DNA from: Propionibacteriaceae bacterium
Lineage (GTDB): Bacteria; Actinomycetota; Actinomycetes; Propionibacteriales; Propionibacteriaceae
DNA length: 32,000 nucleotides
Reading direction: 5' to 3'
Assembly (NCBI GenBank): GCA_031256725.1
Contig: JAIRQE010000015.1
Coordinates: forward strand, 109,149-141,148
The notes beneath the pieces are model-generated. The model ran no database searches, was not told where the DNA came from, and was given only the letters and a program-made list of their open reading frames with translations. Positions 1 to 31,706 of this stretch are shown here, in pieces; the stretch's first letter is position 1, and the number at the start of each line of letters is the position of its first letter. A program made the position numbers and the translations under genes.

Positions 1-232
1 TCGATTCCTTGGCAGCATGTTGATGAATAGTTTGTCGACTTATCGTTCCTGACTTCTTGGTACTTGGAGGGTTGGGTACAAGAAATTCACCAATAGTACA
101 TGGGGACAGACGGAACCACCGTTAAAGTCACGTTGCTTGGGTGCACAAGGGACTTCACTCAGTACTGTGGGACGGACCTATAACCATTGGGATCACGTGG
201 AGTGTATATCTATATAACGCACTTGCGCAGTT

Positions 233-285
233 GTTTCTCGAAGGAAACAACTCCTCCGTTCGGGAAGACGGTTCACAACAGATAT
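233..285 (+). repeat. Copy A of a 53-nt conserved intergenic element (copy B at 5242-5294)
   Basis: GGAAACAACTCCTCCGTTCGGGAAGACGGTTCACAACAGATATACCCTACCCT matches 5242-5294 at 49/53 positions in the same orientation. It contains a CCGT-N8-ACGG hairpin. The stem is intact in both copies, and 2 of the 4 differences fall in the loop. Confidence 0.7.
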
Positions 286-345
286 ACCCTACCCTCCACG
301 TCGACGTTTCAGATTTCCCAAGAATGGTCATTCTTCAATGATGGT

Positions 346-436
346 GGGTGTCAGGGGACGTATCTCGGACACTCGGAACGCAGGACATCCTGGCACATAT
401 CATCCTCAGAGTCAGGAGATACGTCCCCTGACACCC
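346..436. repeat. Perfect 21-bp inverted repeat (long stem-loop, 49-nt loop) in the non-coding region upstream of ispE
   Basis: GGGTGTCAGGGGACGTATCTC (346-366) is the exact reverse complement of GAGATACGTCCCCTGACACCC (416-436). No convincing ORF covers 1-529. Confidence 0.8.
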
Positions 437-529
437 TCAGATTCCCACGGATGATCGGAGATTCCGACTTCCGTATCAGGGTTGTCCACCCGCAATGATG
501 ACTTCTTTTCATGGAGTACGCTGCTTATC

Positions 530-1465
530 ATGAGCACGACCCCTTCATTTGGTGACCAGGGTTCTGTGCGTGTACGCGTACCCGCCAAGATCAACCTTGC
601 CCTGTGCGTTGGCGGTAACCGCCCAGACGGGTACCACGAGTTGGCGACCATCTTCCAGGCGGTGTCACTCTATGACGATGTGACTGCCACGCGTACCCCA
701 TCCGCGATCACCTGCGAGATGCGTGGAGCTGAGGCACACAAGATCGGCCCTGGTGAGGACAACCTTGCCCATCGTGCCGCCCGCCTATTGAAGAATGAGT
801 ACGATGTCCGCGAAGGGGTACATCTCACCATCGACAAGCGCATCCCTGTTGCAGGTGGAATGGCTGGGGGATCCGCCGATGCGGCTGGCGCGCTCTTGGC
901 CTGTTCTCGATTGTGGGATCTGCGAGTGAGCCTCGACGACCTCATGACCCTGGGGGCACGCCTCGGAGCCGATGTACCCTTCCCCCTCATGGGTGGATGT
1001 GCTATTGGCCTCGGACGTGGTGAATCCCTGACACCCGTGTTGAGTCGAGGGCAGTACCATTGGGTTTTGGCTCTCTCGGCTTCCCAGTTGTCGACACCAG
1101 CGGTCTTCCAACGTTTCGATGAGCTCACGTCCTGTTTTGAGGTACCTGAGGTACCCGAGATTCCTAAAGAGCTCATGATGGCCCTGGCCTCTGGGGATGC
1201 CGTCCAAGTCGGACGCAACCTTGTCAACGAGCTTTCAGCAGCTTCATGCTCCCTTGCTCCCGAGTTGCCCACCACTCTTCGTGCTGGATGCGAAGCTGGA
1301 TGCTTAGGCTCAATCATCTCTGGATCAGGCCCCACTGTGGCATTCCTTGTCAAGGGTGAGGCCGAAGCTACCGAACTTGCGCTCTTCCTCTCAACACTGG
1401 GTATAGCCCGTGAGGTACGATTGGCGGTAGGGCCAGTACCAGGAGCAACAGTCATAGAAGAATGA
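530..1465 (+). CDS. ispE: 4-diphosphocytidyl-2-C-methyl-D-erythritol kinase (GHMP kinase family)
   Basis: ORF 482..1465. It has the N-terminal PAKINLAL..GG.RPDGYHEL..IFQAV motif and the GHMP glycine-rich loop PVAGGMAGGSADAAG. I moved the start to ATG 530 (MSTTPSFG...) because 482 is a TTG that adds a non-homologous-looking extension. Confidence 0.93.
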   Translation: MSTTPSFGDQGSVRVRVPAKINLALCVGGNRPDGYHELATIFQAVSLYDDVTATRTPSAITCEMRGAEAHKIGPGEDNLAHRAARLLKNEYDVREGVHLTIDKRIPVAGGMAGGSADAAGALLACSRLWDLRVSLDDLMTLGARLGADVPFPLMGGCAIGLGRGESLTPVLSRGQYHWVLALSASQLSTPAVFQRFDELTSCFEVPEVPEIPKELMMALASGDAVQVGRNLVNELSAASCSLAPELPTTLRAGCEAGCLGSIISGSGPTVAFLVKGEAEATELALFLSTLGIAREVRLAVGPVPGATVIEE

Positions 1466-1656
1466 CCATCTTTGAACGTCCTATAACGTCGAGGGTCATG
1501 ACCCAGAACTTCACAATTTCTATCCTCAAGTAGTCCACCAGCCGAGAGTTGTGAACTTTGAAGGTCCTAGAGCACCGAAATCGCAGTACAACTTCACAAT
1601 TCGCCCAGGACTATCGAGAGTCGATGGATTTCTTGAAGTTGTGTCGCGGGTACTCC

Positions 1657-3213
1657 TTATTGCCGTGGTCCGGGATGACGGGGGAAGACAACCGTGGTTT
1701 TGTGGAGCCGACTTTGTTTGACGTGTACAGCTAATGGCCTAGATCCGTGGGAGGGACCCTGTACATTTGCGCTCTTGAGTACATCGCGTGTTTCTGCTGC
1801 CTGAGCCCTGCGAGTGGTACGGGTACTGTGGCTCACCGGGCGCGAGGCTGATGTTCGGGGGGAGAGCAGGGTCTTTGCGAGAGCCTGTTGGGCGGCTCGG
1901 GCGGTGCGCTTGGCTCCACGGATCTTCGGAAGTTCCCCGCCAATGACCTCGTAGTCGGTCAGGGAAAAGATGGGTTTCGTGATCCTCGTCCACAGGGAGC
2001 CTGCCGCGTTTGCAGCAGTACGCGCGACTGTGGTGGTGCGGTAACGCAGGCTGGCTTTCTGTTTGGCTTCGGCGACTGCAGCGCGCTCGGCTTCGCGGAC
2101 CTCTCGATGAAGGACACGGGTCTTCGTTGACGGATCTGGGATAAGCCAGGGGTCGTAGAATTCTTCCACCTCGGATTCGTCGACCTTCGGTTCGACCTGG
2201 GGTTCGTCGACCTCGGGTTGGGGAAGGTCAAGGGTCTGTTCTGGCAGTTCTTTAGAAGCTGGTACCTCGCTCTGGGTGGGAGCCTCTGTGTCAGTAACCG
2301 TCGGCTTGCGATACTTGGGTACGAGCTTCCTGTCTTCTTCAATGGGTATGAGAACCAGAAGGTTGGCGAGGTTCCATGAACTCAACCAGAGTGTGAGGGT
2401 ACCCGTGATGGAGGAGAGGGCAACCACAAGGGTGTTGGCCTGGGATCCTGGTCCAACGGTACCAAAGGCCCACGCGATATCGATAGACATCAGGGATACG
2501 GTCGGTACCACACAGAAGAGGAGGATCAACTGAATGTCTCGAATGGTCCGTCTGCGGAAACTATGATCTAAGGCTATGTACTTGAATGAGGGGAGGAATA
2601 CTGGGCGCTTGAGGACGACAAGCACACCAACCAGAGCAATGAGGAAAACAATGGGTATTGTTATCAGTAGTGGGACTGTGTAGAAGGAGCCAACGAAGGG
2701 GGTACGCATCCCCCAATCAAAGACTCCATCGAGATTCCAACTGTGAACCCAGGTACGGTTGTCCATGCTCGCCTCGGTGGCTGCCCAGATAGCTGTAAAA
2801 ACCGCAAGCCCTATCATGAGTATCACGAGGATCAACAACGGCCACCAAAGGTAATCTTTAGCCCGCATTGCGGTCAACTTGCCCTGTGTGTCCCCAGGTG
2901 TACGCCCCAAGAGCCACCAGTCGCCACCAACAATGATCACCAATGTGATGACTGCGAACAGGCTGGGGGCAACGAGTATTCCCTGGTTGTACTGTGTGGT
3001 CAGACCCACAGTGATTGCGGCGGTAAGACCGAGGGCAACCGCACCGATTCGTGTCCATCGAGTGATTTTGGTAATCCGGGGAAGCTGGTTGTAACGAATC
3101 TTCATCTTCCGCCAGTTGCGTCGGTGCCCGAACAGGGTGGCCAGGAAGATCAAAATGGACATAACAACGACCGCAGCTACTACCCAGCCTCCAAGCAGGG
3201 ACGAAGCCGTCAT
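1657..3213 (-). CDS. Polytopic membrane protein of unknown function with an acidic/proline-rich and basic C-terminal cytoplasmic tail
   Basis: 518-aa ORF. About 8 hydrophobic segments occupy the first ~300 aa. The tail carries short PQPEVDEPQVEPKVDESEVEE repeats. I recognise no family signature. Confidence 0.6.
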   Translation of the reverse strand: MTASSLLGGWVVAAVVVMSILIFLATLFGHRRNWRKMKIRYNQLPRITKITRWTRIGAVALGLTAAITVGLTTQYNQGILVAPSLFAVITLVIIVGGDWWLLGRTPGDTQGKLTAMRAKDYLWWPLLILVILMIGLAVFTAIWAATEASMDNRTWVHSWNLDGVFDWGMRTPFVGSFYTVPLLITIPIVFLIALVGVLVVLKRPVFLPSFKYIALDHSFRRRTIRDIQLILLFCVVPTVSLMSIDIAWAFGTVGPGSQANTLVVALSSITGTLTLWLSSWNLANLLVLIPIEEDRKLVPKYRKPTVTDTEAPTQSEVPASKELPEQTLDLPQPEVDEPQVEPKVDESEVEEFYDPWLIPDPSTKTRVLHREVREAERAAVAEAKQKASLRYRTTTVARTAANAAGSLWTRITKPIFSLTDYEVIGGELPKIRGAKRTARAAQQALAKTLLSPRTSASRPVSHSTRTTRRAQAAETRDVLKSANVQGPSHGSRPLAVHVKQSRLHKTTVVFPRHPGPRQ

Positions 3214-3413
3214 TTCACATCCTTTTCGGGCAACTGATGCGCATTACTGTAGTCACGACTAGGGGATCGACATGTCGAAACGCCGATTTGTTGCTTGTGA
3301 GCACCCCCACCAACGCGACGAACACTCAAGAACTCATAGGCGCTTATGGTCGAGTATGACTGGTGATCCTCCGAGAGTCAAGGCAAAACACCCTGGACTC
3401 GGTCCTTGACCGT

Positions 3414-5054
3414 CTACATGAAATCCGGGGGATGGATACCCAAGAGTTTCAGACCAGTGGCAAGTACTCTTTGCGTGGCCCGACATAGCACCAATCTGGA
3501 CGAGCGTTCCTCACTCTTCAGTACGGAACATTGCTCGTAGAAAATCGAGAATTGGGAGGCCAACTCGAAGAGGTACCCACACAGTTTATGGGGTTGCAAA
3601 CTCTCGGAAACCTCTTCCACGACCTGAGGAAACAGGGTGAGACTCAGAGCCAGGAGTTCTTCTGCTGGCTCAGTGAGAGCACTGATCTCAGCTGTCTGAT
3701 CATCCACGACATCTCCTTGGGAGGCAGCGTCACGAAGGATCTTGGAGGGTCGTGCATGAGCATATTGAAGATAGGGCCCTGTATCACCCTTCGTGGCGGT
3801 CATCCTGGTCACATCGAAGACATAATCCTTGTGGAGGCCATTGGAGAGGTCGGCATATTTCACAGCAGCCATTGCCACTTCTGGTACTGCTACCTCCTCG
3901 GCGGCATCCAGCAGGGTTTCAAGGGTGACGGCTTTCCCATCTCGTGTCTTGAACATCTTCCCATCCGAGCCAAGTACAGATCCGAAGCCCACATGCTCGG
4001 CCTTGACATCTGCCGGAAGCCAGCCTGCCAACCGAGCGGTGGTGAAGACTTGGGAGAAATGATGGGCCTGAGGGGAACCGACAACGTAGATGATCCGATT
4101 AGCTTTCAGCGTATCCACGCGGTACCTAATGGCGGCAAGATCTGTTGCCGAGTAGCCGTACCCTCCATCTGATTTGCGTACGATGACAGGAGCCTCATCA
4201 TCAGGCAGGAACACGCACAGGGCCCCATCATCCATGGTGGCAATCCCCAGGGCCTCCAAGTCGGTAGCCACTGCATCCAGCATCGGGTTGTACATGGATT
4301 CCCCGGCCAGATCTGTATCAGTCAGGAGCACCCCAAGACGTTGGTACGCCTTATTGAAACCCGCCTTAGAAACGTCAATCAGGGTCTGCCATACCTGTCG
4401 GGTTTCAGGGTCCCCGGCCTGGAGGGCCACCACGCGCTTGCGTGCAGCCTCCGCGAACCCCTCGTCGTCCCGGAAATGGGTCTGGGCTCGCTTATAGAGT
4501 TCAACTGAGGTTTCAAGTGTGAGGCTTGAGGGGTCTGTACCCTCGAAAAGGATCTGCTCAACCAGCATTCCGAATTGGGTACCCCAGTCGCCGATGTGGT
4601 TTTGGGGGATGACCGTGTTCCCGGTGGCTCTCAGGACTCGTACCAAACAGTCACCGATAATCGTTGAACGCAGGTTCCCGACATGCATGGGTTTGGCAAC
4701 GTTAGGTGCCGAGTAATCGACAATAACTGTTGCTGGCGTCTCGGATTGGGTGATGCCGCAGTGGGGGTCTGCAAGCAGGTCGGTGACCGCCGTACCGAGG
4801 CGATCCGAGCGCAAGCGAATGTTGATAAACCCAGGACCAGCGATCTCCAAGGGCTCACAGATGTCACTCATATCCAAGGAATCAACAATCTCTTGGGCGA
4901 TCTCGCGAGGCTTCCGCCCCGAGTCGGCAGCCAGACGCAGAGCAGCATTGCATTGATAGTGACCAAAGGCTGGTTTGGTTGATGCGCGAAGCTCTGGATC
5001 AATACCGATGATTTCTTGGATCCTTTGGGAGACTATTGCTGGGAGAGAAGCCAT
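3414..5054 (-). CDS. argS: Arginine--tRNA ligase
   Basis: ORF 3414..5120. It has the class-I HIGH-type motif PMHVGNLRSTIIGD and an ArgRS-like N-terminus and length. ATG 5054 (MASLPAIV...) is preferred over the 22-codon upstream extension. Confidence 0.93.
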   Translation of the reverse strand: MASLPAIVSQRIQEIIGIDPELRASTKPAFGHYQCNAALRLAADSGRKPREIAQEIVDSLDMSDICEPLEIAGPGFINIRLRSDRLGTAVTDLLADPHCGITQSETPATVIVDYSAPNVAKPMHVGNLRSTIIGDCLVRVLRATGNTVIPQNHIGDWGTQFGMLVEQILFEGTDPSSLTLETSVELYKRAQTHFRDDEGFAEAARKRVVALQAGDPETRQVWQTLIDVSKAGFNKAYQRLGVLLTDTDLAGESMYNPMLDAVATDLEALGIATMDDGALCVFLPDDEAPVIVRKSDGGYGYSATDLAAIRYRVDTLKANRIIYVVGSPQAHHFSQVFTTARLAGWLPADVKAEHVGFGSVLGSDGKMFKTRDGKAVTLETLLDAAEEVAVPEVAMAAVKYADLSNGLHKDYVFDVTRMTATKGDTGPYLQYAHARPSKILRDAASQGDVVDDQTAEISALTEPAEELLALSLTLFPQVVEEVSESLQPHKLCGYLFELASQFSIFYEQCSVLKSEERSSRLVLCRATQRVLATGLKLLGIHPPDFM

Positions 5055-5241
5055 GGGTTCTATTGTACGACCCTGGGTGATGTACCCACGGCTTGTACGC
5101 GACTCTTCACGACCAGACACATGGATTGTTCACGTTGACGGTACTGATCAGTCATTGGTGGACCTCAATGATCCGACTTATGTCCTCTTCTTCTTGGAAG
5201 AGAGCGTACTGGTTGATGATTCTTCGATCTAGGCTTGTGAC

Positions 5242-5294
5242 GGAAACAACTCCTCCGTTCGGGAGAACGGTTCGCAACAGATATACCCCACCCT
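5242..5294 (+). repeat. Copy B of the 53-nt conserved intergenic element
   Basis: 49/53 identity to 233-285 in the same orientation. It lies in the divergent argS / aminopeptidase intergenic region, 60 nt upstream of ATG 5355. Confidence 0.7.
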
Positions 5295-5354
5295 GCTCTT
5301 GTCGTTGGGTAGTCAGTTTCACTACGTGGGTCCGTATCGTGAGAGACTGATCAC

Positions 5355-6671
5355 ATGTCGTTCGTGGAGTTTTTGGGGGCATCGCCGTCGGCTTATCATG
5401 CTTGTGCAGAAGTCGCTCGCCAACTGCGGGAGGTTGGGTACCAGGAGCAACTGGAAACTGAGCCCTGGGATTCAACGCCTGGAGGTCATTTCGTATGCCG
5501 TGACGGAGCCATCGTGGCTTATCACCTGGGGGAAGTTGGGTCTCGATTCGCAATCCTGGGGGCTCATACAGATTCCCCTGGATTCAAGCTGAAACCCCGT
5601 CCACAGCATTCATCCTATCGGTGGTCCCAGGCAGGGATGGAGGTCTACGGTGGGCCGCTGCTCAATTCTTGGTTGGACCGCGAGTTCGGTTTAGCTGGAC
5701 GTGTTGTTTTGAGTACAGGCGAACAGCGCCTTGTGGCGACTGACCCCTGGCTGAGGATTCCGCAACTGGCTCCCCATCTAGATCGGTCGGTCAACGATGG
5801 ATTGATTCTCAATCCGCAAAGACACCTCATGCCGGTCTACGCAGTGGGGGTACGATCCCTCAAATCATGGAAGACCCCTCGCGCTGGTACTTCTGGTACC
5901 TCTGGGAACTCGGACTTCAGGCCAGTTGTTGATACGGCAGGTGTGGACATCATCCAAGCTTTAGCTGAGGTATTAGGGTGCGCCGCAGACGAGATCATGG
6001 GTCACGACCTTTTCGCGTATATCACCCAACCTCCAGAGTATTTTGGTGTTGACAAGCAGTTTCTCGCTGCCGGTCGTCTTGATAATCTGTCCAGCGTCTA
6101 CCCTGGCCTGCAAGCGTTGATCGCCGCTGAACCCTCCATAGGTACCATTCCGGTCCTAGCCTGCTTCGATCATGAGGAAGTCGGATCTGAAACCCGTACT
6201 GGCGCTGGAGGTACTCTCCTCGACGATGTTCTCACCAGGATCTGCTTGGGTCTCAGCCTTACCGCCGACGAGGCCTATCAGGTACGCGCTCGCTCCCAGA
6301 TGGTCTCGGCTGATGCGGGCCATTCGATCCATCCGAATTACCCCGAGAAGCATGACCTCGATGAACATCCGCTGATGGGTGCGGGCCCGATGATCAAGAT
6401 CAACGCCCAGCAGAGGTACACTTCCGACGGCCCCGGACGTCAACTGTGGGCCGCTATCTGCGCCGAAGCTGGGGTACCCCATCAAGTCTTCGTCTCCAAT
6501 AATGCAGTACCCTGCGGTTCCACGATCGGCCCCATCGCCTCCACCCGCCTAGGAATCCCCACCGTGGATGTCGGCATCCCCCTATTAAGTATGCATTCCG
6601 CCCGAGAAATGTGCGCCCCCATAGATGTCGAGTACCTAACCCAAGCCCTCACAGTCTTTTTCATCGGATAG
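5355..6671 (+). CDS. M18 family (aspartyl-type) aminopeptidase
   Basis: 438-aa ORF carrying GAHTDSPGFKLKP, ACFDHEEVGSETRTGAGG and LLSMHSAREM, which are typical of peptidase family M18. Confidence 0.9.
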   Translation: MSFVEFLGASPSAYHACAEVARQLREVGYQEQLETEPWDSTPGGHFVCRDGAIVAYHLGEVGSRFAILGAHTDSPGFKLKPRPQHSSYRWSQAGMEVYGGPLLNSWLDREFGLAGRVVLSTGEQRLVATDPWLRIPQLAPHLDRSVNDGLILNPQRHLMPVYAVGVRSLKSWKTPRAGTSGTSGNSDFRPVVDTAGVDIIQALAEVLGCAADEIMGHDLFAYITQPPEYFGVDKQFLAAGRLDNLSSVYPGLQALIAAEPSIGTIPVLACFDHEEVGSETRTGAGGTLLDDVLTRICLGLSLTADEAYQVRARSQMVSADAGHSIHPNYPEKHDLDEHPLMGAGPMIKINAQQRYTSDGPGRQLWAAICAEAGVPHQVFVSNNAVPCGSTIGPIASTRLGIPTVDVGIPLLSMHSAREMCAPIDVEYLTQALTVFFIG

Positions 6672-6814
6672 TTGGCGTGACCCTAAGGGGCCAGAATCTT
6701 CCTCAGACTGGGCAGCCGATTCCGTAAGTTCGCAAATAAGGCTGGATTATGGATGGGTCTTCGCACACCCTGAGGTTTGGGAACTTCTGTAGTGGGGTCG
6801 TTGGACTTTAGCTC

Positions 6815-7471
6815 TCATGGTTGGGGGGTCGCAGGCAGTACTAATCCGGCGATGATCGTACCTGCTACTAACCAGGGGCCGAATGCGAACTGGCGTACCC
6901 GTGCTAGGGCAGAGTAGAGGACTGCGAGAAGGCAGCCGACTAGGAGTCCAGCGAAGACGGCGGTGGGAGAGATGAGGCCCAGCCACCATCCGCAGATTAT
7001 GACGAGTTTGACGTCGCCAAGGCCAAGGTCGCCGCGGGTGAGCATGTGGATAGCGAGGAAGGCCACGCCACAGACGAGTCCTGTCGTAAATCCCATGAGC
7101 AGACGTACCGGGTCTGACCATGCGCAACCCAATCCAGCAAGGATGGTTGTCACTGCGAGAAGGAACTGTGCTGGATCGGGCAGACGTCGTACATCCATGT
7201 CGACCGCAGCCATCCACGATCCGATCGCGCTGAATGCCATCCACCCTAGAAGGTGAGCCCAGTAGGTGAGGTCATATGTGGGCGGGATCAGCCATACTGT
7301 ACTCCCCCAACAGGCGGCCAATGCACAAGGTACCCACCATCGAGTCCCAGGTGGTGCAAGACTTGTTTCATCACTATCTTCCCAAGTCACTCGATAGTTA
7401 AGCCTGTTAAGCCAACGTCGAATGACTTCGCCAACAATTAGTCCTGATGCGATCCCGGCAGCGATCCCCAT
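6815..7471 (-). CDS. A24 family prepilin (type IV / Flp) leader peptidase
   Basis: 218-aa polytopic ORF. It has the two catalytic Asp contexts AAVDMDVRRLPD and GLGDVKL, plus the C-terminal FGPWLVAG motif. Confidence 0.85.
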   Translation of the reverse strand: MGIAAGIASGLIVGEVIRRWLNRLNYRVTWEDSDETSLAPPGTRWWVPCALAACWGSTVWLIPPTYDLTYWAHLLGWMAFSAIGSWMAAVDMDVRRLPDPAQFLLAVTTILAGLGCAWSDPVRLLMGFTTGLVCGVAFLAIHMLTRGDLGLGDVKLVIICGWWLGLISPTAVFAGLLVGCLLAVLYSALARVRQFAFGPWLVAGTIIAGLVLPATPQP

Positions 7472-7612
7472 CGCCCCCTCCCTTCATGGTTAGTACATCA
7501 ATCCTTGCTAACCACAAAGCCCCATAGAAAGTTATCCACAGGTTTTCTGTTGGGAAGTGGACCCTCTTTTGAACATCGGGACTATCCGATAAACGGTGGG
7601 TGGCCCGGCATT

Positions 7613-7975
7613 TTAATTGCTACCTTCTTGGTTGAGTTGACTTGGGAAGGTGATGGCGAACGCGTTTAACACTGGTTTCCGCCTGTTCATCCATCGTGCC
7701 TTAGCTTTCCCATGGGGGTCACGTGATCTGGCCACGAGATACAAGCATTTCAGTGCTGCTTGATCATTGGGGAAATGACCTCTGGCTTTCACAGCTCTTC
7801 TCAAACGAGCGTTCAACGATTCGATCGCGTTCGTTGTGCAGATCACCTGTCGGATCTCGGGATCATAGGCCAGGAAAGGAATGAACTCTTCCCATGCTGA
7901 ACGCCTCAGGTTGATCGCAGCAGGATACTTTGATCCCCATTTCTTAGCGAACTCATCGAACCGGAAGTTCGCGCT
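7613..7975 (-). pseudogene. IS256-family transposase, C-terminal ~120-aa remnant (5'-truncated)
   Basis: Translation reads ...FDEFAKKWGSKYPAAINLRRSAWEEFIPFLAYDPEIRQVICTTNAIESLNARLRRAVKARGHFPNDQAALKCLYLVA..., the conserved C-terminal region of IS256/mutator-type transposases. The open frame continues upstream of the listed GTG 7846 with no start codon and ends at an in-frame TAG (7997-7999). The N-terminal ~300 aa are missing. Confidence 0.85.
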
Positions 7976-8011: not shown

Positions 8012-8084
8012 GCGCCTGTAGCTTAATGGATAGAGCATCTGACTACGGATCAGAAGGTTGGGGGTTCGACTCCCTCCAGGCGCG
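8012..8084 (+). tRNA. tRNA-Arg (anticodon ACG)
   Basis: A 73-nt cloverleaf folded by hand. Acceptor stem GCGCCTG/CAGGCGC, D stem GCTT/GAGC, anticodon stem TCTGA/TCAGA with loop CTACGGA, T stem GGGGG/CCCTC with TTCGACT loop, discriminator G. CCA is not encoded. Confidence 0.92.
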
Positions 8085-8387
8085 CAGATTATGACGGCCC
8101 ACTTCAATCGGCAGTACGACGGGGACATAACGCCCTTGCTCATCCACTGTTGGCATGATAGTAGTTAAATCAACTGAGAAGAATTCAACTACTTTGTAGA
8201 TATCTTTGATGCTCCACGAGATTTTCCCGCTCAGTTTTCCACCCATTGCATGTGGTCCAACTCCAAGTGCTTCGCCTAGCTCTATGCGAGTAGTTTTACT
8301 TCTGAACATGAGCTGATTAACGGTCTCTGAGATGGCATGGTCAGGCGCATAAACGGGATCAATTTCAATCGGTCTGGGTCTAGCCAT
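8043..8387 (-). CDS. XRE-family helix-turn-helix transcriptional regulator
   Basis: ORF 8043..8456 with the start set to ATG 8387 (MARPRPIEID...). The HTH segment is SKTTRIELGEALGVGPHAMGGKLSGKISWSIKDIYKVVEFF. The last 14 codons overlap the 3' half of the tRNA. Confidence 0.7.
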   Translation of the reverse strand: MARPRPIEIDPVYAPDHAISETVNQLMFRSKTTRIELGEALGVGPHAMGGKLSGKISWSIKDIYKVVEFFSVDLTTIMPTVDEQGRYVPVVLPIEVGRHNLRAWRESNPQPSDP

Positions 8388-8609: not shown

Positions 8610-8846
8610 ATGGACGGTGGTCACATGATTCGCCCTTCGCAAGCGGCCAAAATTGTGGGAGTTCATTATCGAACAATGATGAAATGGATACATGGTGGAT
8701 TAGCTCCGCATTCTCGGTTGCCGAACGGATTTTATCGAATTGATGAGAGGTGGGCTAGGAGCCAGGTAGTACCCGGTTTAGGAATCCTAGTCGATGCTGG
8801 CCGATGTTCTTCGGATACTTCCACGGGGTTAACTGATGTCTCTTGA
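8610..8846 (+). CDS. Excisionase/MerR-like (HTH_17-type) small DNA-binding protein
   Basis: 78 aa. IRPSQAAKIVGVHYRTMMKWIHGGLAPHSRLPNGFYRIDERW resembles Xis/AlpA-type helix-turn-helix proteins. The gene has a good RBS. Confidence 0.65.
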   Translation: MDGGHMIRPSQAAKIVGVHYRTMMKWIHGGLAPHSRLPNGFYRIDERWARSQVVPGLGILVDAGRCSSDTSTGLTDVS

Positions 8847-9894
8847 AGCTACTGGGTGGGCCTGGAATCAGACGGGGTTGAATACCTCGCAGAAAATTGT
8901 TTTGTTGGCCTTGGCTGATCAGGTCCGTTCTGCGGAGTCTGGGTGTTTTCCGATGGTGTCGTCGTTGATGGCGAAGAGTGAGTTATCTAAGACGAGTGTT
9001 ATCAGGGCGATCAGAGAGTTGGAGGCTCGTGGTTTGGTTGCGGCTTTTCCTTTACCGAGTCGTCATGGTGGGAGGCAGCATGCGAATTACTATTTGTTGG
9101 CTATTCATGGTGATTTAGATGTGAGTCGTATTGATTTAGACCGGGTGTATCGGTTGATTGAGAGGTCTGAGTTAACGGATCACGATCCCGAGTATTCCGC
9201 TTCTGTGAATAATAATGCCACCGAAATGATGGGTACCGCTGGCGACATGGGTACCGCTAGCGGTACCCATGTCAATTTGACACCCATGGTTGACAAGGGG
9301 AAACAGGGTATGGGTACCGCTGGCGACACCCATACCGCGGACGACATGGGTACCGCTGGCGATAGGGGTATGGGTACCGCTGGCGACACCCATCTATATA
9401 AGGAATTAACCAGGAATTTAAAACCTAACCTAACCGGTGTTGGTGAGGTTGGGTCGGGTGTGGATTTGAATGTGGTGTGGGAATGTTTACCTGCACGGTG
9501 GGGGGAGCATTTAGATTCGTCTGGGCTGCAGGTTGTGGGTCACCACTTGGCGGGGTTATTGGATGCTGGGTGGACTCCCCAGAGGATTCGATGTGTGCTG
9601 GAATCTAATCCGTTGCCGGAATCTCCAAAATCGTGGGTGGGTTTGATATCTCATCGGGTGAAGGGTGTTCCTGCTGTCCCACCTCGTCTGGCTCAATCTG
9701 AGGCACCACGGTTACGGGTGGTGGAGGCTCCAGTGGTTCCTGACCCGTTGTGGGTTCAGGTTATGCGTACTGCGAAGGCTGCGGGTGAACTGGTGCCAGC
9801 TCCGTTTAGTCCTCGGTTTGGTGAGTGGTTGAAAGACCGTGACCAGGGTGCGTGGGAAGTGTGGTTGGCTGAGTCATCGGGGGAGGCTGCATGA
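8836..9894 (+). CDS. HTH_36-type (phage/plasmid replication-initiator-like) DNA-binding protein with an internal MGTAGD repeat region
   Basis: The N-terminus LNTSQKIVLLALADQV...GCFPMVSSLMAKSELSKTSVIRAIRELEARGLV is typical of the winged-helix HTH_36 domain found in Rep/primosome-loader-like proteins. The central part is encoded by the repeat array at 9229-9393. Confidence 0.65.
   Translation: MSLEATGWAWNQTGLNTSQKIVLLALADQVRSAESGCFPMVSSLMAKSELSKTSVIRAIRELEARGLVAAFPLPSRHGGRQHANYYLLAIHGDLDVSRIDLDRVYRLIERSELTDHDPEYSASVNNNATEMMGTAGDMGTASGTHVNLTPMVDKGKQGMGTAGDTHTADDMGTAGDRGMGTAGDTHLYKELTRNLKPNLTGVGEVGSGVDLNVVWECLPARWGEHLDSSGLQVVGHHLAGLLDAGWTPQRIRCVLESNPLPESPKSWVGLISHRVKGVPAVPPRLAQSEAPRLRVVEAPVVPDPLWVQVMRTAKAAGELVPAPFSPRFGEWLKDRDQGAWEVWLAESSGEAA
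9229..9393. repeat. Iteron-like array: five copies of ATGGGTACCGCTGGCGA(C), one a perfect 24-bp palindrome
   Basis: Copies lie at 9229-9246, 9247-9270 (ATGGGTACCGCTAGCGGTACCCAT, a perfect palindrome), 9310-9333, 9346-9363 and 9370-9393. The stretches 9306-9333 and 9366-9393 are 28/28 identical. An AT-rich block (9394-9432) follows directly. Confidence 0.85.
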
Positions 9895-11042
9895 GTAAGA
9901 AAGTCAGCACGTGGCCAGAAATCCTTGTTGATTTCACGTTAGGGGCCGTGACGATTGGGGGGTCATCGTCACAGTTTGATGACCCTGACACTGCCCACAC
10001 TGAGGCGATTACGAGGATTCGGGGTTGGTCATCCCGGTTGAAGCGGGATTTGAATGCCACGGTGGTGTACTCAGATCGGCTGGCATCGTGGGTAGTGCCG
10101 TGTGACCCTGATGTTGAGGTTTCTGAGACTGTCACGAAAACTTTACGTGTCAAGATGCGACAGGTTCAGAAAAAAGTGGATCTCCCGAGGACAGTACCTA
10201 ATCCTGCGGATCGATCTAAGGGGAAGAAGGAGTGTGAGGAACACGAGTTTTCGGATTTGTTGGAGCTTGATTCTGGGGATGATGTTGGTATTGATGGTCT
10301 GTTGGCTAGTGCTGGAGCTGCTGATGGGTACGTGGGAGGTATTCAGAATCGTGGCGTGAAAGTGGTGATTGGGTTAGGGGTTGCGGTTATTGGGGTCATG
10401 GTTGTGGGGGTGGGATGGCTGGCTCATATGCCGTTACCGGTGACTGAGATTACTGCTACTGCAACTGTGACTGTGACTGGTAGGTCATCACCGTCGCCTC
10501 GGGTGTCGGTGACTCCAACTCCAACGAGTTCTCCAACTATGTTTGATACTGAGTCTAGTTCGGTTTCATCTGATGGTTCCGCTAGCGCGACTGTGACTCC
10601 TCGTGCGACAGCGGTGAATACTACGAGGGCTTCGAGTCAGGCCCCGGCAGTTCCTGTTCCTACTGTTGCAGCGCCACAACCTGCTCCAGCGACCACTCAA
10701 GTGGCACCTCCACCGGCTACTACAGCCCCACCACCTCCGCCACCTCCACCGCCTCCTGCTCCGGTGGCTCCGACGATTTCGAGTGTGACGTGTTCACGTT
10801 CGGGTACGAATATTTCGTCGAATGTGAGTTTCAATACGAATGGGACGAGTGGGACGGTGAGTATTAGTGTCTCGTATTCGGGTGGGGGCGCGGCTGGGTC
10901 TACTCAAAGTCGTTCGGTGAGTGGTGGGAATACGAGCGCGAATGCGGCGTGGGCGGGGATCCCATCGGACGCACCTGTGACATGTACCGCAACGATTTCA
11001 ACAACGTCTGGCTCCAGCAGTAAGTCAGCCGCAACAACATGA
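9891..11042 (+). CDS. Single-pass membrane protein with an S/T/P-rich extracytoplasmic region (contains a Pro10 run)
   Basis: 383-aa ORF with an ATGA overlap to the upstream gene. It has one TM segment (VVIGLGVAVIGVMVVGVGWLA). After it come T/S/P-rich linkers and a ~90-aa Cys-containing C-terminal domain. I recognise no family. Confidence 0.6.
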   Translation: MSKKVSTWPEILVDFTLGAVTIGGSSSQFDDPDTAHTEAITRIRGWSSRLKRDLNATVVYSDRLASWVVPCDPDVEVSETVTKTLRVKMRQVQKKVDLPRTVPNPADRSKGKKECEEHEFSDLLELDSGDDVGIDGLLASAGAADGYVGGIQNRGVKVVIGLGVAVIGVMVVGVGWLAHMPLPVTEITATATVTVTGRSSPSPRVSVTPTPTSSPTMFDTESSSVSSDGSASATVTPRATAVNTTRASSQAPAVPVPTVAAPQPAPATTQVAPPPATTAPPPPPPPPPPAPVAPTISSVTCSRSGTNISSNVSFNTNGTSGTVSISVSYSGGGAAGSTQSRSVSGGNTSANAAWAGIPSDAPVTCTATISTTSGSSSKSAATT

Positions 11043-14000
11043 GCCTCGGTGGTCATCCACTGGGGATGGTCGAAGAAAGGAAAGGGGAGGGTATGTATAC
11101 CTCGTCAATGTGGAGAAGGAAGCTCCATCGCAACCGACCTTGTGTCGGTTTTATGGGCAGGGTAGCCGCTTTTACTCTGTCTATTGCTCTGATTGGGATG
11201 ATCGCTCCGACAGCTGTTGCTGTCGAGGTTGGCAACCGTGCGTATGGTTATAGTGTGAGTTGGAGTGGTGGGAAAATTGGTCGTTACGATGGGATGTGGA
11301 TTGGATCCTATTGGACTGACATGGGTGAGGCATTTTGTGTGACTCCTCGTGGTACATCACCAACTAACGGTACTGGTTCGGGTGCGTGGTGGCTGGATGG
11401 GTGGTCGAACCAGGAGGGTGAGCAGATGACCACTCAGCAGTTGGCTCAGGCCGCGTTTCTGGCGTATTCGTATACGCAGTGGGAATCCAACCCACAAAAT
11501 GCAGCTATCATTAAGTTGGCGTTGTTGAGTGTGTTGGGTTTGGATAACGCTGAGGTGTATGGGGCTAATGGTGCTCGTGCTAATTTTGATGTCCGAGTTC
11601 CTGGCAGTGATGGTCGTATTATTGCGGACCAGTTGGGTCTGACCAGTGTGATTTTGGATTGGATTGCGCGCGCGCAGGCGCGGGCATCGACGTGGAATGG
11701 TGTCACGTCGGGGACGAAACATAACTTGAATGAGATTCGTTATCCGGGCGACACTATTAACTATGAGGTGAATTTTCCGGGTATTCCTGCCGGCTATGAT
11801 GTCTTTTGGACTATCACGAAACCGGATGGTGCTACGGTGTCGGTCACGACACAAACTAATGCTAGTGGTACTGCTGCGTTGGAGTGGGATACTCTCCCGG
11901 ATCTACTTGGGGAGTATAAGGTGAAGTGGCAGATTTTGAATGTTCCACCTCGTATTCCTTTAGCGTTTTATGGGCCTGGTCGGCCCGCACAGTTGTTGTA
12001 TATTGCTGTACCGGACACAGGACGGAAAGAGGACCCAGATAAGGTTTCATTCATCCATGATGGTGAGTTGGGTATTGAGACCCAGATTTCTGATCAGGCT
12101 GCTGAACCGGGGTCCACGATTACTGATACAGTCAGGGCGACTGGTTTAGTGCCTATGGTGTATGGAAAGTCTGTGTCGTGGAAGTTCACGGGATCGATTT
12201 TTAAGACTGCACCTGATAGTTATGGTTCGTGTCAGGAAGCGGATTGGTCTACGGGTAAAGCTGAGCAGGTTCATTCGTTTACAGAGCCGGTTCCTGCTGC
12301 GTCGATTGTTGATTATGCGGTTGAGATGACGATGGGATCGTATATGATCCCGGTGATGCACCCTGCGACGTGTTACACGTATCAGGTCAAACTGCATGGC
12401 ACATATGATGGTATGAATGAGGATCTATCGGTATCGCATGAGTTGGGTATGACGACAGAGACAACACTTGTTCGTAGTGATTTACCTGTGGTGACCTCAG
12501 CGGTGTCGAATCAGTCTGCGAATCCTGGTGAAACAATCACGGACACTGTCGAGATTACGAATATTACATTGAGGTCGGGTGTGACGTGGACACTGACGGG
12601 TACGCTCGTGGAAGCGGTCCCGGTTGATGGGGCATGTAGCAAGGTGGACTGGGGTAAGGGCACTCCAGTGAAAACGTATGAGACTGTGGTGACTGCGGCC
12701 CGGGTGTCGAATAAGACAGCGATACTATCTGGTTTGGGTGGATATGTGATTCCGAATCTACAGGAACAGATGTGCTACTCGTATGGGGCCACATTGACTG
12801 TGGTGGGTGCGGATGTGGATGTGACAGTGGAGCATCCGGTGGGTCATCCGACGCAAACCACACTGTCAAAAGATGGTCGCCCGACGTTGTCGAGTGAGAT
12901 TTCGACTCAGTCTGCGAATCCTGGTGAAACGATCACGGATACGGTGATTCTCACAAACCTGTGGATGGGTACGGGTGTGACGTGGACCGTGACAGGCATC
13001 CTCGTGGAAGCGGTCCCGGTTGATGGGGCATGTAGCAAGGTTGCCTGGGGTCAAGCCACTCAGGTGACCTCGTATGAGATGGTTGTTCAACCATCACAGG
13101 TGAATACATCTCGGACGGCACGGTTGACTGGTGTGGGGGCGTATGCGATCCCGGTGGGCCAAACCCAAATGTGTTACTCGTATGGGGTCACATTGACTGG
13201 TTCTGGTTCTGGGATCACAACAACGCGCTATGACCATCCTGTGGGTCATATGACGCAAACCACACTGTCAAAAGATGGAGTCCCGACGTTGTCGTCGCAG
13301 GTGTCACAACAAATGGCGATGCCTGGGGATACGATCACGGATACTGTCCGGGTTCGGAATCTGTGGATCACACCGTCTGTAACATGGGTGTTAACAACGG
13401 TGATTGCGGCTGCTGATCCTGTTCAGGGGTCCTGTGCGGGTGTGAACTGGGTGACCTCGCAGACGGTTCACACGTCTACCACAACGTTGACACCAGTCAT
13501 GGTTGATGCGAACCATCAGGTAACTCTGCCAGGTTTGGGTGCGTACCGCATTCCGTACAACCAACCGATTATGTGCTACTCGTATGGTGCTGTGTTGACG
13601 GCGAGTGGTGAGGGGGCTGTACCGGTCACAGTGACGCATGCCATTGGTGATGTGGCCCAAACTGCACTGGCAATGCGTGATGGGCTCATTATTATCACCG
13701 AGACCCAGATCTCGAATCAGATGGCGAATCCTGGTGAAACGATTAGGGATTACGCGCGTGCTGAAGGTCTGGTCTCGGAGTTCGACGGTGATCCAATGAA
13801 ATGGGTTTTCGAGGGAGACCTCCATCAGGCAACGGCTGACGACAATGGTGAATGTACTGACGTTGATTGGACTGATACAGAGATCGTGTACTCATGGATG
13901 ACGAAAGTAGACAATTCAAAGATCCAACTCTATGGTGTTGTGGAAGAAACCATGGGCATCTACACGATTCCTCGGTTTGAGGACGCTCACTGTTACTCAT

Positions 14001-14701
14001 ACGAAGTCAAACTCACAGGCTATTTGAATGATGAAGAGTTTTTGTCGACCTACCACCCGGTAGGTCACATAACCGAGTCCACACTGGTGCGTAGTGACAT
14101 GCCCACGATTGTTACTCAGATTTCGAATCAGAAGGCAACTCCTGGTGACACGATCAGTGACATGGTGATGATCAGCAACTTGCATTTTGATCCTGTCGAT
14201 GACGCACCGTTATCATGGAACATGCAAGGCATCCTCGTGAAAGCGGCCCCGGTGGATGCAGGCTGTGCGACAGTGGACTGGACTCACGGCAAAACTGTGC
14301 ATGAATTCTCTGCTCTCATAACTGAAGACATGCTGGTTGAAGATTCCCCGAACTCATATACCGTTGCCGGTTTGGGTGCCTATACGATCCCGTCAGGCGA
14401 ACCAGAAATGTGTTACACATTTGGGGAGACGCTTATTGCTGCCTGGGAATCATCCGACGACCCAGATGATCCTAGTGAGGAGCCACCCACCACAGTCCAC
14501 CCGGTTGGGCATGTTCAACAAACCACACTGGTTCCGTCAGGGATTAAGCCTGTCGCGACTGGTGGCACAGTTGTGACTGACCGGAATCTGTTGTTGGTGG
14601 TTGTGTTGTCATCACTGGTCATGATTGGTGGTTACGGTATTGCTACAGGGATAGGACGCATACGCAGCCACCGTCAACGTTCACTGCCTTCACAGCGGTG
14701 A
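11039..14701 (+). CDS. Large surface adhesin: signal peptide, N-terminal unique domain, six ~130-aa Ig-like repeats, C-terminal sortase-type anchor
   Basis: 1220-aa ORF. ATG 11039 overlaps the upstream stop as ATGA. An alternative ATG at 11093 follows a GGGGAGG RBS. Signal-like segment: RVAAFTLSIALIGMIAPTAVA. The six repeats are described in the next feature. The C-terminus is PVATGG (14549-14566) followed by a hydrophobic helix and an RIRSHRQR tail. Confidence 0.8.
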   Translation: MSLGGHPLGMVEERKGEGMYTSSMWRRKLHRNRPCVGFMGRVAAFTLSIALIGMIAPTAVAVEVGNRAYGYSVSWSGGKIGRYDGMWIGSYWTDMGEAFCVTPRGTSPTNGTGSGAWWLDGWSNQEGEQMTTQQLAQAAFLAYSYTQWESNPQNAAIIKLALLSVLGLDNAEVYGANGARANFDVRVPGSDGRIIADQLGLTSVILDWIARAQARASTWNGVTSGTKHNLNEIRYPGDTINYEVNFPGIPAGYDVFWTITKPDGATVSVTTQTNASGTAALEWDTLPDLLGEYKVKWQILNVPPRIPLAFYGPGRPAQLLYIAVPDTGRKEDPDKVSFIHDGELGIETQISDQAAEPGSTITDTVRATGLVPMVYGKSVSWKFTGSIFKTAPDSYGSCQEADWSTGKAEQVHSFTEPVPAASIVDYAVEMTMGSYMIPVMHPATCYTYQVKLHGTYDGMNEDLSVSHELGMTTETTLVRSDLPVVTSAVSNQSANPGETITDTVEITNITLRSGVTWTLTGTLVEAVPVDGACSKVDWGKGTPVKTYETVVTAARVSNKTAILSGLGGYVIPNLQEQMCYSYGATLTVVGADVDVTVEHPVGHPTQTTLSKDGRPTLSSEISTQSANPGETITDTVILTNLWMGTGVTWTVTGILVEAVPVDGACSKVAWGQATQVTSYEMVVQPSQVNTSRTARLTGVGAYAIPVGQTQMCYSYGVTLTGSGSGITTTRYDHPVGHMTQTTLSKDGVPTLSSQVSQQMAMPGDTITDTVRVRNLWITPSVTWVLTTVIAAADPVQGSCAGVNWVTSQTVHTSTTTLTPVMVDANHQVTLPGLGAYRIPYNQPIMCYSYGAVLTASGEGAVPVTVTHAIGDVAQTALAMRDGLIIITETQISNQMANPGETIRDYARAEGLVSEFDGDPMKWVFEGDLHQATADDNGECTDVDWTDTEIVYSWMTKVDNSKIQLYGVVEETMGIYTIPRFEDAHCYSYEVKLTGYLNDEEFLSTYHPVGHITESTLVRSDMPTIVTQISNQKATPGDTISDMVMISNLHFDPVDDAPLSWNMQGILVKAAPVDAGCATVDWTHGKTVHEFSALITEDMLVEDSPNSYTVAGLGAYTIPSGEPEMCYTFGETLIAAWESSDDPDDPSEEPPTTVHPVGHVQQTTLVPSGIKPVATGGTVVTDRNLLLVVVLSSLVMIGGYGIATGIGRIRSHRQRSLPSQR
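12074..14530 (+). repeat. Six tandem ~130-aa domain repeats inside the adhesin gene
   Basis: Each repeat starts (T/S)Q(I/V)SxQxAxPG(E/D)TI(T/R)D, has two conserved Cys (G.C..V.W and (M/H/T)CY(S/T)(Y/F)), and ends HP(V/I)GHxxQTTL. Repeats 2 and 3 share exact DNA blocks 396 bp apart, for example 41 bp at 12605-12645 = 13001-13041. Confidence 0.85.
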
Positions 14702-22536: not shown

Positions 22537-23300
22537 GTTCCCGTGGTCATCACCACCGTCGGTCCATTAGTTGGTTGGATCCACAACTGTGGCTCATGAT
22601 CGTTGGTGTGGGTGGGGTTGTGGTGATTCTCGCCGGTGTGAATGTGCCTCTTCGTCTGGCTGAAACATGGTGGCCATCGGGACAAACTCTTGATTCAAAC
22701 TGGTTCAGTGTGGTGATCAAGGTCGTGAAAGGCCACACACAGTGGACTCCACCAGCAACCTGGGTTGCTGGTGGAATGCTTGGGGTTCTCCTTTGTGGCC
22801 TTGCGGCGGGTCTGATCATGTATCGATCATGGAATCGTCGTACATCACGGTTGGATTGGTGCGCTGAATACATGGGATGGGGTGACGAAATCCTTCCGAT
22901 CACTGCTGATCATGCAGAGAAGATGGCTCACCAACTCGGAGTGAAAGCGTTACCACCGTCACCCACTTTGGATCACATGACTCGTAGCATGAATGGATAC
23001 ACATTCAGTGGGACAGGGATACCACGGGCAGTAGTGACAGTCATCACCCTTGATACTGAGGTTGCGTCCACAGTGTGTGATGAGAAGGGGCAGTGGATGG
23101 CCACTGTCAATGGTCGTCTTCCTGCAGGAACATCAGTGATGGTGGTTCATGCAGCCACCAATGATAAACCCGAGTCATTAGCATCGTCTGCGATCCGTGC
23201 TGAACGTGTTCGCGTGTTGCCTCGCCCATCCACGCGCAAGTCCACAACTATGACGGCAGCTGTGCTGAATGGAACATTTCGCGTCGGAGGTCACATATGA
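22533..23300 (+). CDS. Two-TM membrane protein with a C-terminal Ig-like domain; likely the detached membrane anchor of the coupling protein
   Basis: It has ATGA overlaps at both ends. TM1 is LWLMIVGVGGVVVILAGV and TM2 is WVAGGMLGVLLCGLAAGLIMY. The C-terminal segment YTFSGTGIPRAVVTVITLDTEVASTVCDEKGQWMATVNGRLPAGTSVMVVHAATND resembles bacterial Ig-like repeats. Confidence 0.6.
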   Translation: MSSRGHHHRRSISWLDPQLWLMIVGVGGVVVILAGVNVPLRLAETWWPSGQTLDSNWFSVVIKVVKGHTQWTPPATWVAGGMLGVLLCGLAAGLIMYRSWNRRTSRLDWCAEYMGWGDEILPITADHAEKMAHQLGVKALPPSPTLDHMTRSMNGYTFSGTGIPRAVVTVITLDTEVASTVCDEKGQWMATVNGRLPAGTSVMVVHAATNDKPESLASSAIRAERVRVLPRPSTRKSTTMTAAVLNGTFRVGGHI

Positions 23301-31320: not shown

Positions 31321-31706
31321 AACCACACCTCCATCAAGCGCTCTTCAATGTCATCCAACGACATCGCATGCCCCACACAATAAGCCCTCCACGACTCCAA
31401 CACTGCCTCATCAAACTCCCCAGTACCATGCAACCGCTTCGCGATCTGATTCACATTATTCGCAACATTCGCCATCAACCGCGACAACCGTGCCAACTCA
31501 CTCAACACCACGATCTTCTCATCCCGCGACATCCCACCAGACTGAGGTGACAGGACAGCATCAATCATCAATCGAGGAACACTCACCTGAGCAGTCTCAG
31601 CCAACTCTCTCAACACCAATTCCTGATCCTCAGACACAGTAACCCGATGAGAAAACTGCCGCCCACCCTTCACATTCGCCTGCCGTCTTCGACCAATCTT
31701 CAACAC
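31317..31706 (-). CDS. mobC: MobC-family relaxosome accessory protein (RHH-like)
   Basis: RVTVSEDQELVLRELAETAQVSVPRLM is RHH-like, and ELARLSRLMANVANNVNQIAKRLH is the MobC signature. GTG 31706 lies 9 nt after a GAAGGAGG RBS, whereas GTG 31715 directly abuts that RBS. Confidence 0.8.
   Translation of the reverse strand: MLKIGRRRQANVKGGRQFSHRVTVSEDQELVLRELAETAQVSVPRLMIDAVLSPQSGGMSRDEKIVVLSELARLSRLMANVANNVNQIAKRLHGTGEFDEAVLESWRAYCVGHAMSLDDIEERLMEVWL

Follow-up and report, generated by a model that had tools for sequence, protein, structure and literature searches.

A candidate lambda-like replication origin in the linker codons of an HTH_36 gene from an actinobacterial integrative and conjugative element

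We analyzed a 32,000-nt stretch of DNA from a Propionibacteriaceae bacterium (assembly GCA_031256725.1, contig JAIRQE010000015.1, positions 109,149 to 141,148, forward strand; the whole stretch is hereafter the window). It carries part of an integrative and conjugative element (ICE), and one gene of this element, at 8836-9894, encodes a protein with an HTH_36-type helix-turn-helix (HTH) domain. An earlier reading of the sequence by a model (the original prediction) had pointed to a repeat array inside this gene and suggested either an ICE replication origin or autoregulatory operators. We propose that positions 9204-9435 are probably a cis-acting replication origin set in the linker codons of its own initiator gene and built like the origin of phage lambda (ori-lambda) in gene O. 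That the array serves some cis-acting function as DNA is very likely.

Anatomy of the array and its gene

The array consists of dyad-symmetric sites followed by an AT-rich block. The informative repeat unit is an 11-bp half-site, ATGGGTACCGC, with six exact copies within 9229-9393: on the plus strand at 9229, 9247, 9310, 9346, and 9370, and on the minus strand at 9260-9270. Two further minus-strand copies, each with 2 mismatches, lie at 9323-9333 and 9383-9393. Together these make up three 11+2+11 bp dyads (9247-9270, 9310-9333, and 9370-9393) and two lone half-sites (9229 and 9346). Dyad 1 lies in a perfect 30-bp palindrome, the only perfect palindrome of at least 20 bp in the window, and dyads 2 and 3 are imperfect 24-bp palindromes. 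The array occupies nt 394-558 of the 1059-nt gene, that is, its middle, and no repeats were found near the gene's 3' end. Directly 3' of dyad 3 stand 42 nt of AT-rich DNA whose lowest 30-nt GC content is 0.23, against 0.53 for the gene. The features are as follows.

8836..9894, plus strand: initiator-like gene, 352 aa; winged-helix HTH_36 N-domain, disordered linker, helical C-domain (open reading frame [ORF], Pfam, PHROG, AlphaFold2)
9110..9163, plus strand: three copies of (T/G)TGATT(T/G)AGA, spaced 21 and 23 bp; membership in the element uncertain
9204..9212, minus strand: DnaA-box-like site TTATTCACA (TGTGAATAA on the plus strand), 17 nt upstream of the first half-site
9229..9239, plus strand: lone half-site ATGGGTACCGC, copy 1 of the original prediction (sequence match)
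9244..9273, unstranded: dyad 1, perfect 30-bp palindrome GACATGGGTACCGCT/AGCGGTACCCATGTC, with half-sites at 9247-9257 (plus) and 9260-9270 (minus)
9270..9282, unstranded: 13-bp palindrome TGTCAATTTGACA, abutting dyad 1; membership in the element uncertain
9310..9333, unstranded: dyad 2, ATGGGTACCGC-TG-GCGACACCCAT, right half-site with 2 mismatches
9346..9356, plus strand: lone half-site ATGGGTACCGC, copy 4 of the original prediction (sequence match)
9370..9393, unstranded: dyad 3, same sequence as dyad 2, inside a 28-bp block repeated 60 bp apart
9394..9435, unstranded: AT-rich block CTATATAAGGAATTAACCAGGAATTTAAAACCTAACCTAACC, candidate unwinding element, a degenerate version of the tandem 12-15-mers of the family (GC content, DNA alignment)

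The anatomy first described is confirmed, with some refinements. The five predicted repeat copies stand where they were placed: the longer unit ATGGGTACCGCTGGCGA is exact at 9229, 9310, 9346, and 9370 and has 2 mismatches at 9247. A search with this unit gave 6 matches (the palindromic copy being counted on both strands) against 0.10 expected, and 0 of 100 dinucleotide shuffles reached 6. The two identical 28-bp blocks 60 bp apart are also there, and hold dyads 2 and 3. A palindrome does lie at the second copy, although it measures 30 bp rather than 24 bp, and the AT-rich stretch after the array runs to 9435, 3 nt past the end first given. The term "iteron" has to be replaced: the units are dyad-symmetric sites, as in lambda, and not plain direct repeats.

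The array is encoded in a disordered linker. Pfam assigns HTH_36 to residues 13-68 (E 2.1e-10), and an AlphaFold2 model (24-sequence alignment) has a confident winged helix at aa 1-114, disorder at aa 115-206 (92 residues, encoded by nt 9178-9453), and an all-helical C-domain at aa 207-289 and 305-348. The DnaA-like box, all dyads, and the AT block thus fall in linker codons, which agrees with the predicted location between the HTH_36 domain and a C-terminal domain.

Several other features of the array region were recorded. The three copies at 9110-9163 (GC ~0.33) are two helical turns apart, not all in frame, and unrelated to ATGGGTACCGC; they sit where other lineages of the gene family have their first long repeat. 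Near the 13-bp palindrome, TTGACA occurs twice, at 9276 and 9290, and the center of this palindrome, CAATTTG, resembles dyad centers in other lineages (GTCAAATTGAC and GGACAATTTGTCC). The hexamer GGTACC is present 23 times in the window against 6.3 expected; 15 of these are in the chromosomal flank left of a tRNA gene (window 1-7400), and only two lie in the ~24 kb of ICE (8086-32000) outside the array. Host and element therefore differ clearly in their use of GGTACC, and the GGTACC core of the array is rare for the element.

DNA-level constraint in a family of two-domain proteins

Relatives of the window gene are distant. A scan of a genome collection gave 3 distant loci only, a DNA search of plasmids with the window gene gave no match, a scan of viral contigs gave nothing, and a profile search through a word index gave 5 proteins only. 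Exhaustive HMMER searching with the query returned 1,529 hits, most to the N-domain only, among them many two-domain proteins at 25-40% identity. Family DNA was drawn from exact look-ups, one plasmid, and a metagenome scan (6-sequence alignment). A family hidden Markov model then yielded 53 full-length two-domain genes from 19 lineages.

Intragenic half-sites are a general feature of this family. We find that 18 of the 19 lineages have an 11-bp half-site of their own (e.g., GCAACCGGCAC, GCAACCGGTCA, GCAACCGGACA, GCAAAGGGCCA, GCAACATGACA, GCTATCCGCCA, and ACGGGGTGCAA), whose copies make up 2-4 dyads between gene nt 288 and 561, for the most part within 288-480. The usual arrangement is a pair of long copies (19-50 bp), both containing a palindrome of 24-29 bp and set 78-101 bp apart (80 bp in seven lineages), with two further dyads 24 bp apart after them. 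In some relatives (L001 and L008), the repeats are direct, stand 22-23 bp apart, and have little potential to form hairpins; in L001 these are ACGGGGTGCAA repeats 22 bp apart in differing frames. The half-sites are confined to this segment of the gene. At no more than one mismatch, 91 lie in the genes and 1 in ~141 kb of flanking DNA (including all promoter regions, a 39.9-kb plasmid, and the rest of the window), with none in the promoter regions of the 18 lineages.

The same DNA words are translated in different frames. Spacings of 80, 82, 91, and 101 bp are not multiples of three, and the copies are accordingly read differently: in 35-50-bp repeats 80 bp apart, GGGAAATAACCAATGCGACAAAATGTCATGTTGCG is read once as GNNQCDKMSCCE and once as EITNATKCHVAD. 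In 16 of 18 lineages (all but the window and L055), half-sites on the same strand are spread over at least two reading frames. Where close relatives carry variants, both copies change (TGTCGTG twice in L004, AAATTGT twice in L005). At the peptide level, the linkers of nearly all relatives contain 2-4 short repeats (SQPDTGD, SQGATGG, KGTPMTP, RCDMGV, PVATG) that are unrelated between lineages. After them comes a loosely conserved P-Y-x-E/K...N-x-Q...E-P-P, which aligns to LYKELTRNLKPNLT in the window.

Synonymous sites in the repeat segment are unusually invariant. We compared codon-position diversity in six clusters of 3-12 distinct sequences each. Third-position diversity was 0.026-0.079 in the segment comprising repeats and AT block, 0.039-0.300 in the N-domain, and 0.079-0.238 in the C-domain, making third positions 1.3-7 times less variable in the repeat segment than in the two domains. 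Within the domains themselves, variation at third positions is ~2-3 times that of the average site, as under protein-level selection, whereas the repeat segment has no such excess. The distal linker is the most variable part of the gene in five of six clusters. Thus, the equivalent segment in relatives is under purifying selection at the DNA level.

A DnaA box accompanies the half-sites in many lineages. The perfect box complement TGTGGATAA (of TTATCCACA) is found between gene nt 321 and 402 in 9 of 19 lineages, always on one strand, against 0.12 lineages expected from codon-shuffled genes. It is encoded as x-V-D-N, and codon choice there is fixed: among 13 occurrences of xV[DE]N, Val is GTG in 13 of 13 (background 0.52), Asp is GAT in 11 of 11 (background 0.54), and the base before GTG is always T, the preceding residue being P, V, G, or S. 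The window site aligns with this column. It fits the relaxed consensus TTWTNCACA and is encoded by TCT GTG AAT AAT (S-V-N-N).

The AT block is likewise conserved as DNA. In the family it consists of two tandem 12-15-mers with the pattern "A/T-rich + GAACC(A/G)(C/T)C", for example, ATAAAGAACCGTC ATTAAGAACCACC. Pairs of GAACCACC are spaced 12-15 bp apart (13 bp in five lineages) and are read as E-P-P, N-H-Q, or R-T-T, that is, in frames 0, 1, and 2 across lineages. When 14 lineages (the window and 13 others) are aligned as DNA, the AACC core is invariant and the consensus is TTAT..ATATA.AGAACCACCA.TA.GAACCACCAAACC.AACC. The window block is degenerate yet alignable to it (TATATAAGGAATTAACCAGG AATTTAAAACCTAACC). 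Theta origins have dyad sites, a DnaA box, and tandem AT-rich 13-mers as their standard parts (PMC7433901, PMC3832669).

The original prediction's central claim, a DNA-level function embedded in the gene, is strongly supported by these relatives, in which repeats are co-located, often out of frame, and constrained at synonymous sites beyond the folded domains. It had suggested weighing DNA against peptide conservation in orthologs; with distant relatives used for this comparison, the DNA was the more constrained, and a conserved peptide on diverged DNA was not seen. The array of the window itself is probably constrained too, to judge from its inverted symmetry and the family architecture. MGTA read in the reverse complement is SGTH, so inverted symmetry cannot come from selection on the peptide.

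Origin or another cis-acting site

The layout closely follows that of lambda. The lambda origin lies inside gene O, with iterons at gene O nt 349-433 and a 39-bp high-AT region to their right, and in the O protein a flexible linker joins an N-terminal DNA-binding domain to a C-terminal domain that binds P (PMC6022878, PMC3017604). In both systems, the origin or candidate origin lies in the linker-coding part of the initiator gene, with the same order, polarity, site symmetry, and relative position. Lambda has 4 hyphenated-dyad sites, bound by dimers, and the window has 3 dyads and 2 half-sites; in both, an AT-rich block of ~40 bp lies directly downstream in the direction of transcription. Both genes belong to early operons under phage-type repressors, and the N-domain of the window protein is tied to O-like PHROG families. 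There are also differences. Site spacing is 18-63 bp in the window and 20-24 bp in lambda, and the element includes a DnaA box in many family lineages, a feature that ori-lambda lacks. The C-domain of the window protein is unrelated to that of O and has no known fold match. No P-like loader gene follows, and the pairing of C-domain and loader that marks membership of the lambda type is lacking. Finally, the host element is an actinobacterial ICE of the type IV secretion system (T4SS) kind and not a phage.

The N-domain is related to phage replication initiator families. Its first 100 residues match the PHROG replication initiation families phrog_6643 (7.8e-15), phrog_391 ("O-like"; 2.5e-12), and phrog_1032 (1.4e-11). 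The window protein matches the N-terminal half of phrog_391, and lambda O its C-terminal half (2.7e-39). Two weak matches of the window protein, phrog_678 (2.3e-4) and phrog_345 (3e-3), are matched by the lambda O N-domain too. These shared matches indicate that this type of winged helix serves as the origin-binding module of phage initiators. The recognition helix has a distinct sequence for each half-site group in the family, which is expected if the protein binds its own gene, although the pattern is confounded with phylogeny. Family scans gave no Rep_3 or RepA match for the window protein, and its model has one winged helix, unlike the WH1-WH2 plan of RepA and Rep_3 Rep proteins. A structure search with the full model returned only generic winged-helix regulators, with DnaD-N at rank 23, and a sequence-profile search of the PDB gave nothing below E 0.04.

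From these features we can outline how such an origin might work. Derepression of the ICE would proceed from the Xre-type repressor to the xis-rep operon. Dimers of the 352-aa protein would bind the three dyads and the two lone ATGGGTACCGC half-sites through the N-terminal winged helix, and host DnaA would bind the adjacent box. The nucleoprotein complex could then melt the 42-nt AT-rich block just downstream, the C-terminal domain would recruit host replisome components, presumably including a helicase, and the excised circular ICE would replicate in theta mode. Self-binding, DnaA binding, melting, helicase recruitment, and replication of the ICE are all predicted here from sequence.

Several results weigh against an origin. 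In the window, spacings of 18, 63, 36, and 24 bp keep every repeat copy in frame, and the copies are identical at synonymous sites, as a recent duplication would also leave them. The perfect DnaA box is missing from 10 of the 19 lineages. The window box has one mismatch to TTATCCACA, and TTWTNCACA, with two sites in 32 kb, occurs at chance level, so that the window box alone is no better than chance. No close ortholog of the window gene was found: the word-index protein search gave the query and one N-domain relative. Comparison of the family profile with lambda O by hhalign was non-significant (probability 0.23), the Pfam scan matched HTH_36 only and not Phage_rep_O, and no significant fold match to the C-domain alone turned up in PDB or BFVD. 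Near the HTH_36 gene, no partner gene for a helicase, loader, or primase was recognized.

The distribution among plasmids also counts against a conventional replicon. Only one plasmid in PLSDB has a two-domain member (72,556 plasmids; tblastn of plasmids and phages with three family members). This plasmid, pCmus45274 of Corynebacterium mustelae (L008, NZ_CP011543.1), carries the whole module beside an annotated RepA. On both counts, the module is no usual plasmid maintenance replicon; a transient role after excision of ICEs and a role outside replication would each be consistent with this. In pCmus45274, the RepA gene is directly beside the repressor/xis/HTH_36 module. PLSDB calls the plasmid non-mobilizable despite a MobF relaxase, two coupling-protein-like genes, an SCO6880-family protein, and a VirB4-like ATPase; the MobF gene is ~18 kb from the module.

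The dyads might instead bind the encoded winged-helix protein for regulation, as an intragenic autoregulatory roadblock acting on the gene and the T4SS operon or as a nucleoprotein switch controlling conjugation. We consider this unlikely, though it accounts for several observations. The winged helix of the N-domain is of the generic MarR/Fur/TrmB type found in transcription factors, the gene comes after xis as the first large one of the transfer operon, and pCmus45274 retains the module despite its own RepA in a family nearly absent from plasmids. Regulation would leave unexplained the codon-invariant DnaA box, the conserved tandem AT-rich 12-15-mers right after the dyads, and the PHROG matches to replication initiators. 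Nor does any promoter region of the 18 lineages contain a half-site. A promoter and terminator scan found none inside the array, including no sigma-70-like promoter, and the idea of an internal promoter was dropped on that account. Between the two functions originally suggested, an origin is the better fit than promoter-type operators, given the DnaA box and tandem-13-mer AT block that accompany the dyads, promoters free of half-sites, and the O-like N-domain.

A role of the palindromes in single-stranded DNA during conjugation, as an accessory site of the transfer origin (oriT) or relaxosome, as a single-strand origin or priming site, or as a hairpin promoter in the recipient, is improbable. 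The element is conjugative, with a relaxase and MobC, and single-stranded folding of the array region is far better than that of shuffles (z = -5.6). Yet relaxase and MobC lie ~20 kb away, just as the MobF gene of pCmus45274 is far from its module, and the direct repeats of L001 and L008 offer little hairpin potential. A layout of three or four equivalent dyads, a DnaA box, and tandem AT-rich repeats is also unlike that of an oriT or single-strand origin.

More improbable still is a peptide repeat in a disordered linker, arising by recent in-frame slippage or duplication and without function as DNA. The disordered linker of the window, with its wholly in-frame, synonymously identical copies and an 18-bp period in Tandem Repeats Finder, is what slippage would produce, but the reverse-complement symmetry (the 30-bp palindrome and two dyads) goes beyond peptide selection. 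For the family, this explanation is already largely refuted by out-of-frame copies, by low third-position diversity while the remaining linker evolves fastest, and by repeat peptides unrelated between lineages. Plasmid centromeres are typically arrays of repeated sites bound by small DNA-binding proteins, and the array resembles them in this respect; a centromere-like partition site with the HTH protein as adaptor is nevertheless highly improbable, since no ParA- or ParM-type ATPase adjoins the gene in the window or L004, the DnaA box and AT-rich block are not centromere features, and it is initiator families, not ParB or ParR, that the N-domain matches.

Among actinobacterial systems, the closest precedent for an initiator with binding sites in its own gene is RepAM of pMEA300, a tRNA-integrated actinomycete element whose initiator binds multiple short inverted repeats in its own coding sequence (PMC2440964). 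Both are actinobacterial integrative conjugative elements with initiator sites, or candidate sites, inside the initiator gene. The 8-bp repeats of RepAM, however, belong to a 3'-terminal hairpin accompanied by a pC194-like nick site, a sign of rolling-circle replication, whereas the 11-bp half-sites of the window are mid-gene and are followed by an AT block. The pMEA elements also lack iterons, according to a review, and use TraB/FtsK-type transfer rather than a T4SS. SGI1, with its RepA and oriV, demonstrates that an integrated mobile island can carry an iteron-type replicon (PMC7433901), and HTH_36-domain Rep proteins with iteron origins have been described in Paracoccus plasmids (PMC3832669). 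These replicons, like the candidate origin of the window, combine repeated initiator sites with a DnaA box and with an AT-rich region that contains short repeats. They differ in having intergenic origins (upstream or downstream of rep) with direct-repeat iterons of 17-39 bp, as opposed to intragenic dyads, and their Rep proteins are unrelated beyond the HTH_36 domain. Compared with iteron plasmid replicons in general (~22-bp direct repeats), the window has the DnaA-like box and AT block together with dyads spaced 18, 63, 36, and 24 bp, and direct repeats at 22-23 bp do occur in L001 and L008.

The surrounding element and the wider family

The window element is a T4SS-type ICE of an actinobacterium, as its coupling protein, VirB4-like ATPase, relaxase, and tRNA show. 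Two features lie to the left of the HTH_36 gene.

8012..8085, plus strand: tRNA-Arg(ACG), probable integration site at the left end of the ICE
8610..8846, plus strand: Xis-like HTH_17 gene, in one operon with the initiator-like gene and overlapping its start by 11 nt

Between the tRNA and the xis-like gene lie a minus-strand ORF for an Xre/BetR-like repressor and then an AT-rich divergent promoter region. No second copy of the tRNA 3' end (attR) was found in the window; the right end of the ICE and its integrase lie outside it. Genes downstream of the HTH_36 gene encode a T-Q ester adhesin, an M23 peptidase, an SCO6880-family protein, a VirB4-like ATPase, a TraG/VirD4 coupling protein (23297-24643), ArdC, DUF4913, a MobA/VirD2-type relaxase (29629-31326), and MobC, the relaxase and MobC genes spanning 29.6-31.7 kb. 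The neighborhood of L004 is like that of the window, with a repressor, HTH_17, the HTH_36 gene, and TrbL-like and other transfer genes.

The gene next to the HTH_36 gene (9891-11042) has no Pfam, PHROG, or NCBIfam match. Its product resembles a membrane protein; it contains a hydrophobic segment, 10 consecutive prolines, and a long Pro/Ser/Thr-rich region, and it lacks a winged helix of the family type. In L032, L036, L018, L023, L017, L010, L009, and L049, the next gene does encode an N-terminal winged helix like the family N-domain, so the downstream gene there is a paralogous second HTH protein. The adhesin gene (11039-14701) encodes a 1,220-aa surface protein with a T-Q ester-bond domain match and several long internal repeats, in which the motifs "QSANPGETITDTV" and "MCYSYG" recur; a C-terminal hydrophobic segment precedes a basic tail. 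This protein is probably an ICE adhesin for mating-pair formation. Outside the ICE, a perfect DnaA box TTATCCACA is present at 7532-7540, and the translation of an ORF fragment beside it (7613-7846; AIESLNARLRRAVKARGHFPND) looks by eye like a transposase remnant.

More distant relatives occur in genomes of ~73% GC: L002 5347-6432 (Streptomyces sp. NPDC046925) and L001 461-1630 (a Streptosporangiaceae metagenome-assembled genome). Both retain the dip in linker GC content (in L002, 0.43 over 40 nt, encoding PPKNTSLKKTRNQNTNP) and have an extra Cys-rich C-terminal tail. In the protein cluster of P0003, several members measure only 147-185 aa, whereas the full protein has 342 aa. The intragenic repeats probably interrupt gene calls or contigs, so that the family may be under-assembled in metagenomes. 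None of 10 two-domain members looked up has a functional name; the annotated pCmus45274 member is called only "helix-turn-helix domain-containing protein."

The lambda-like origin of the window may be one instance of something broader. We see the case as evenly balanced for an unrecognized, widespread initiator family that drives theta-type autonomous replication of T4SS-type ICEs across Actinobacteria from a three-part origin in linker codons. Its parts would be a DnaA box, dyads that co-vary with the recognition helix, and an unwinding element of tandem 13-mers, with the same DNA words translated in two or three frames across lineages. Neither this family nor its intragenic repeats turned up in our literature searches. 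Lambda and other phages already use the design itself; what is new here is to meet it in an unrelated two-domain family of actinobacterial T4SS ICEs, where it comes with a DnaA box and with sites translated in several frames.

The locus is a clear natural case of overlapping codes, in which the linker tolerates a peptide dictated by DNA sites. It is because the linker tolerates any peptide that the same 35-50-bp words can be translated in different frames. If the origin reading is correct, the family would be a counterpart of the lambda O/ori-lambda design, either independent or very ancient, and one ~1-kb gene would constitute a compact, self-contained replicon for vectors in poorly tractable Actinobacteria. 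ICE replication, where present, is usually ascribed to relaxase-driven rolling circle from oriT. An origin of this kind would provide a mode of ICE replication independent of the relaxase, a second, theta-type route for actinobacterial T4SS ICEs that would explain their persistence after excision.

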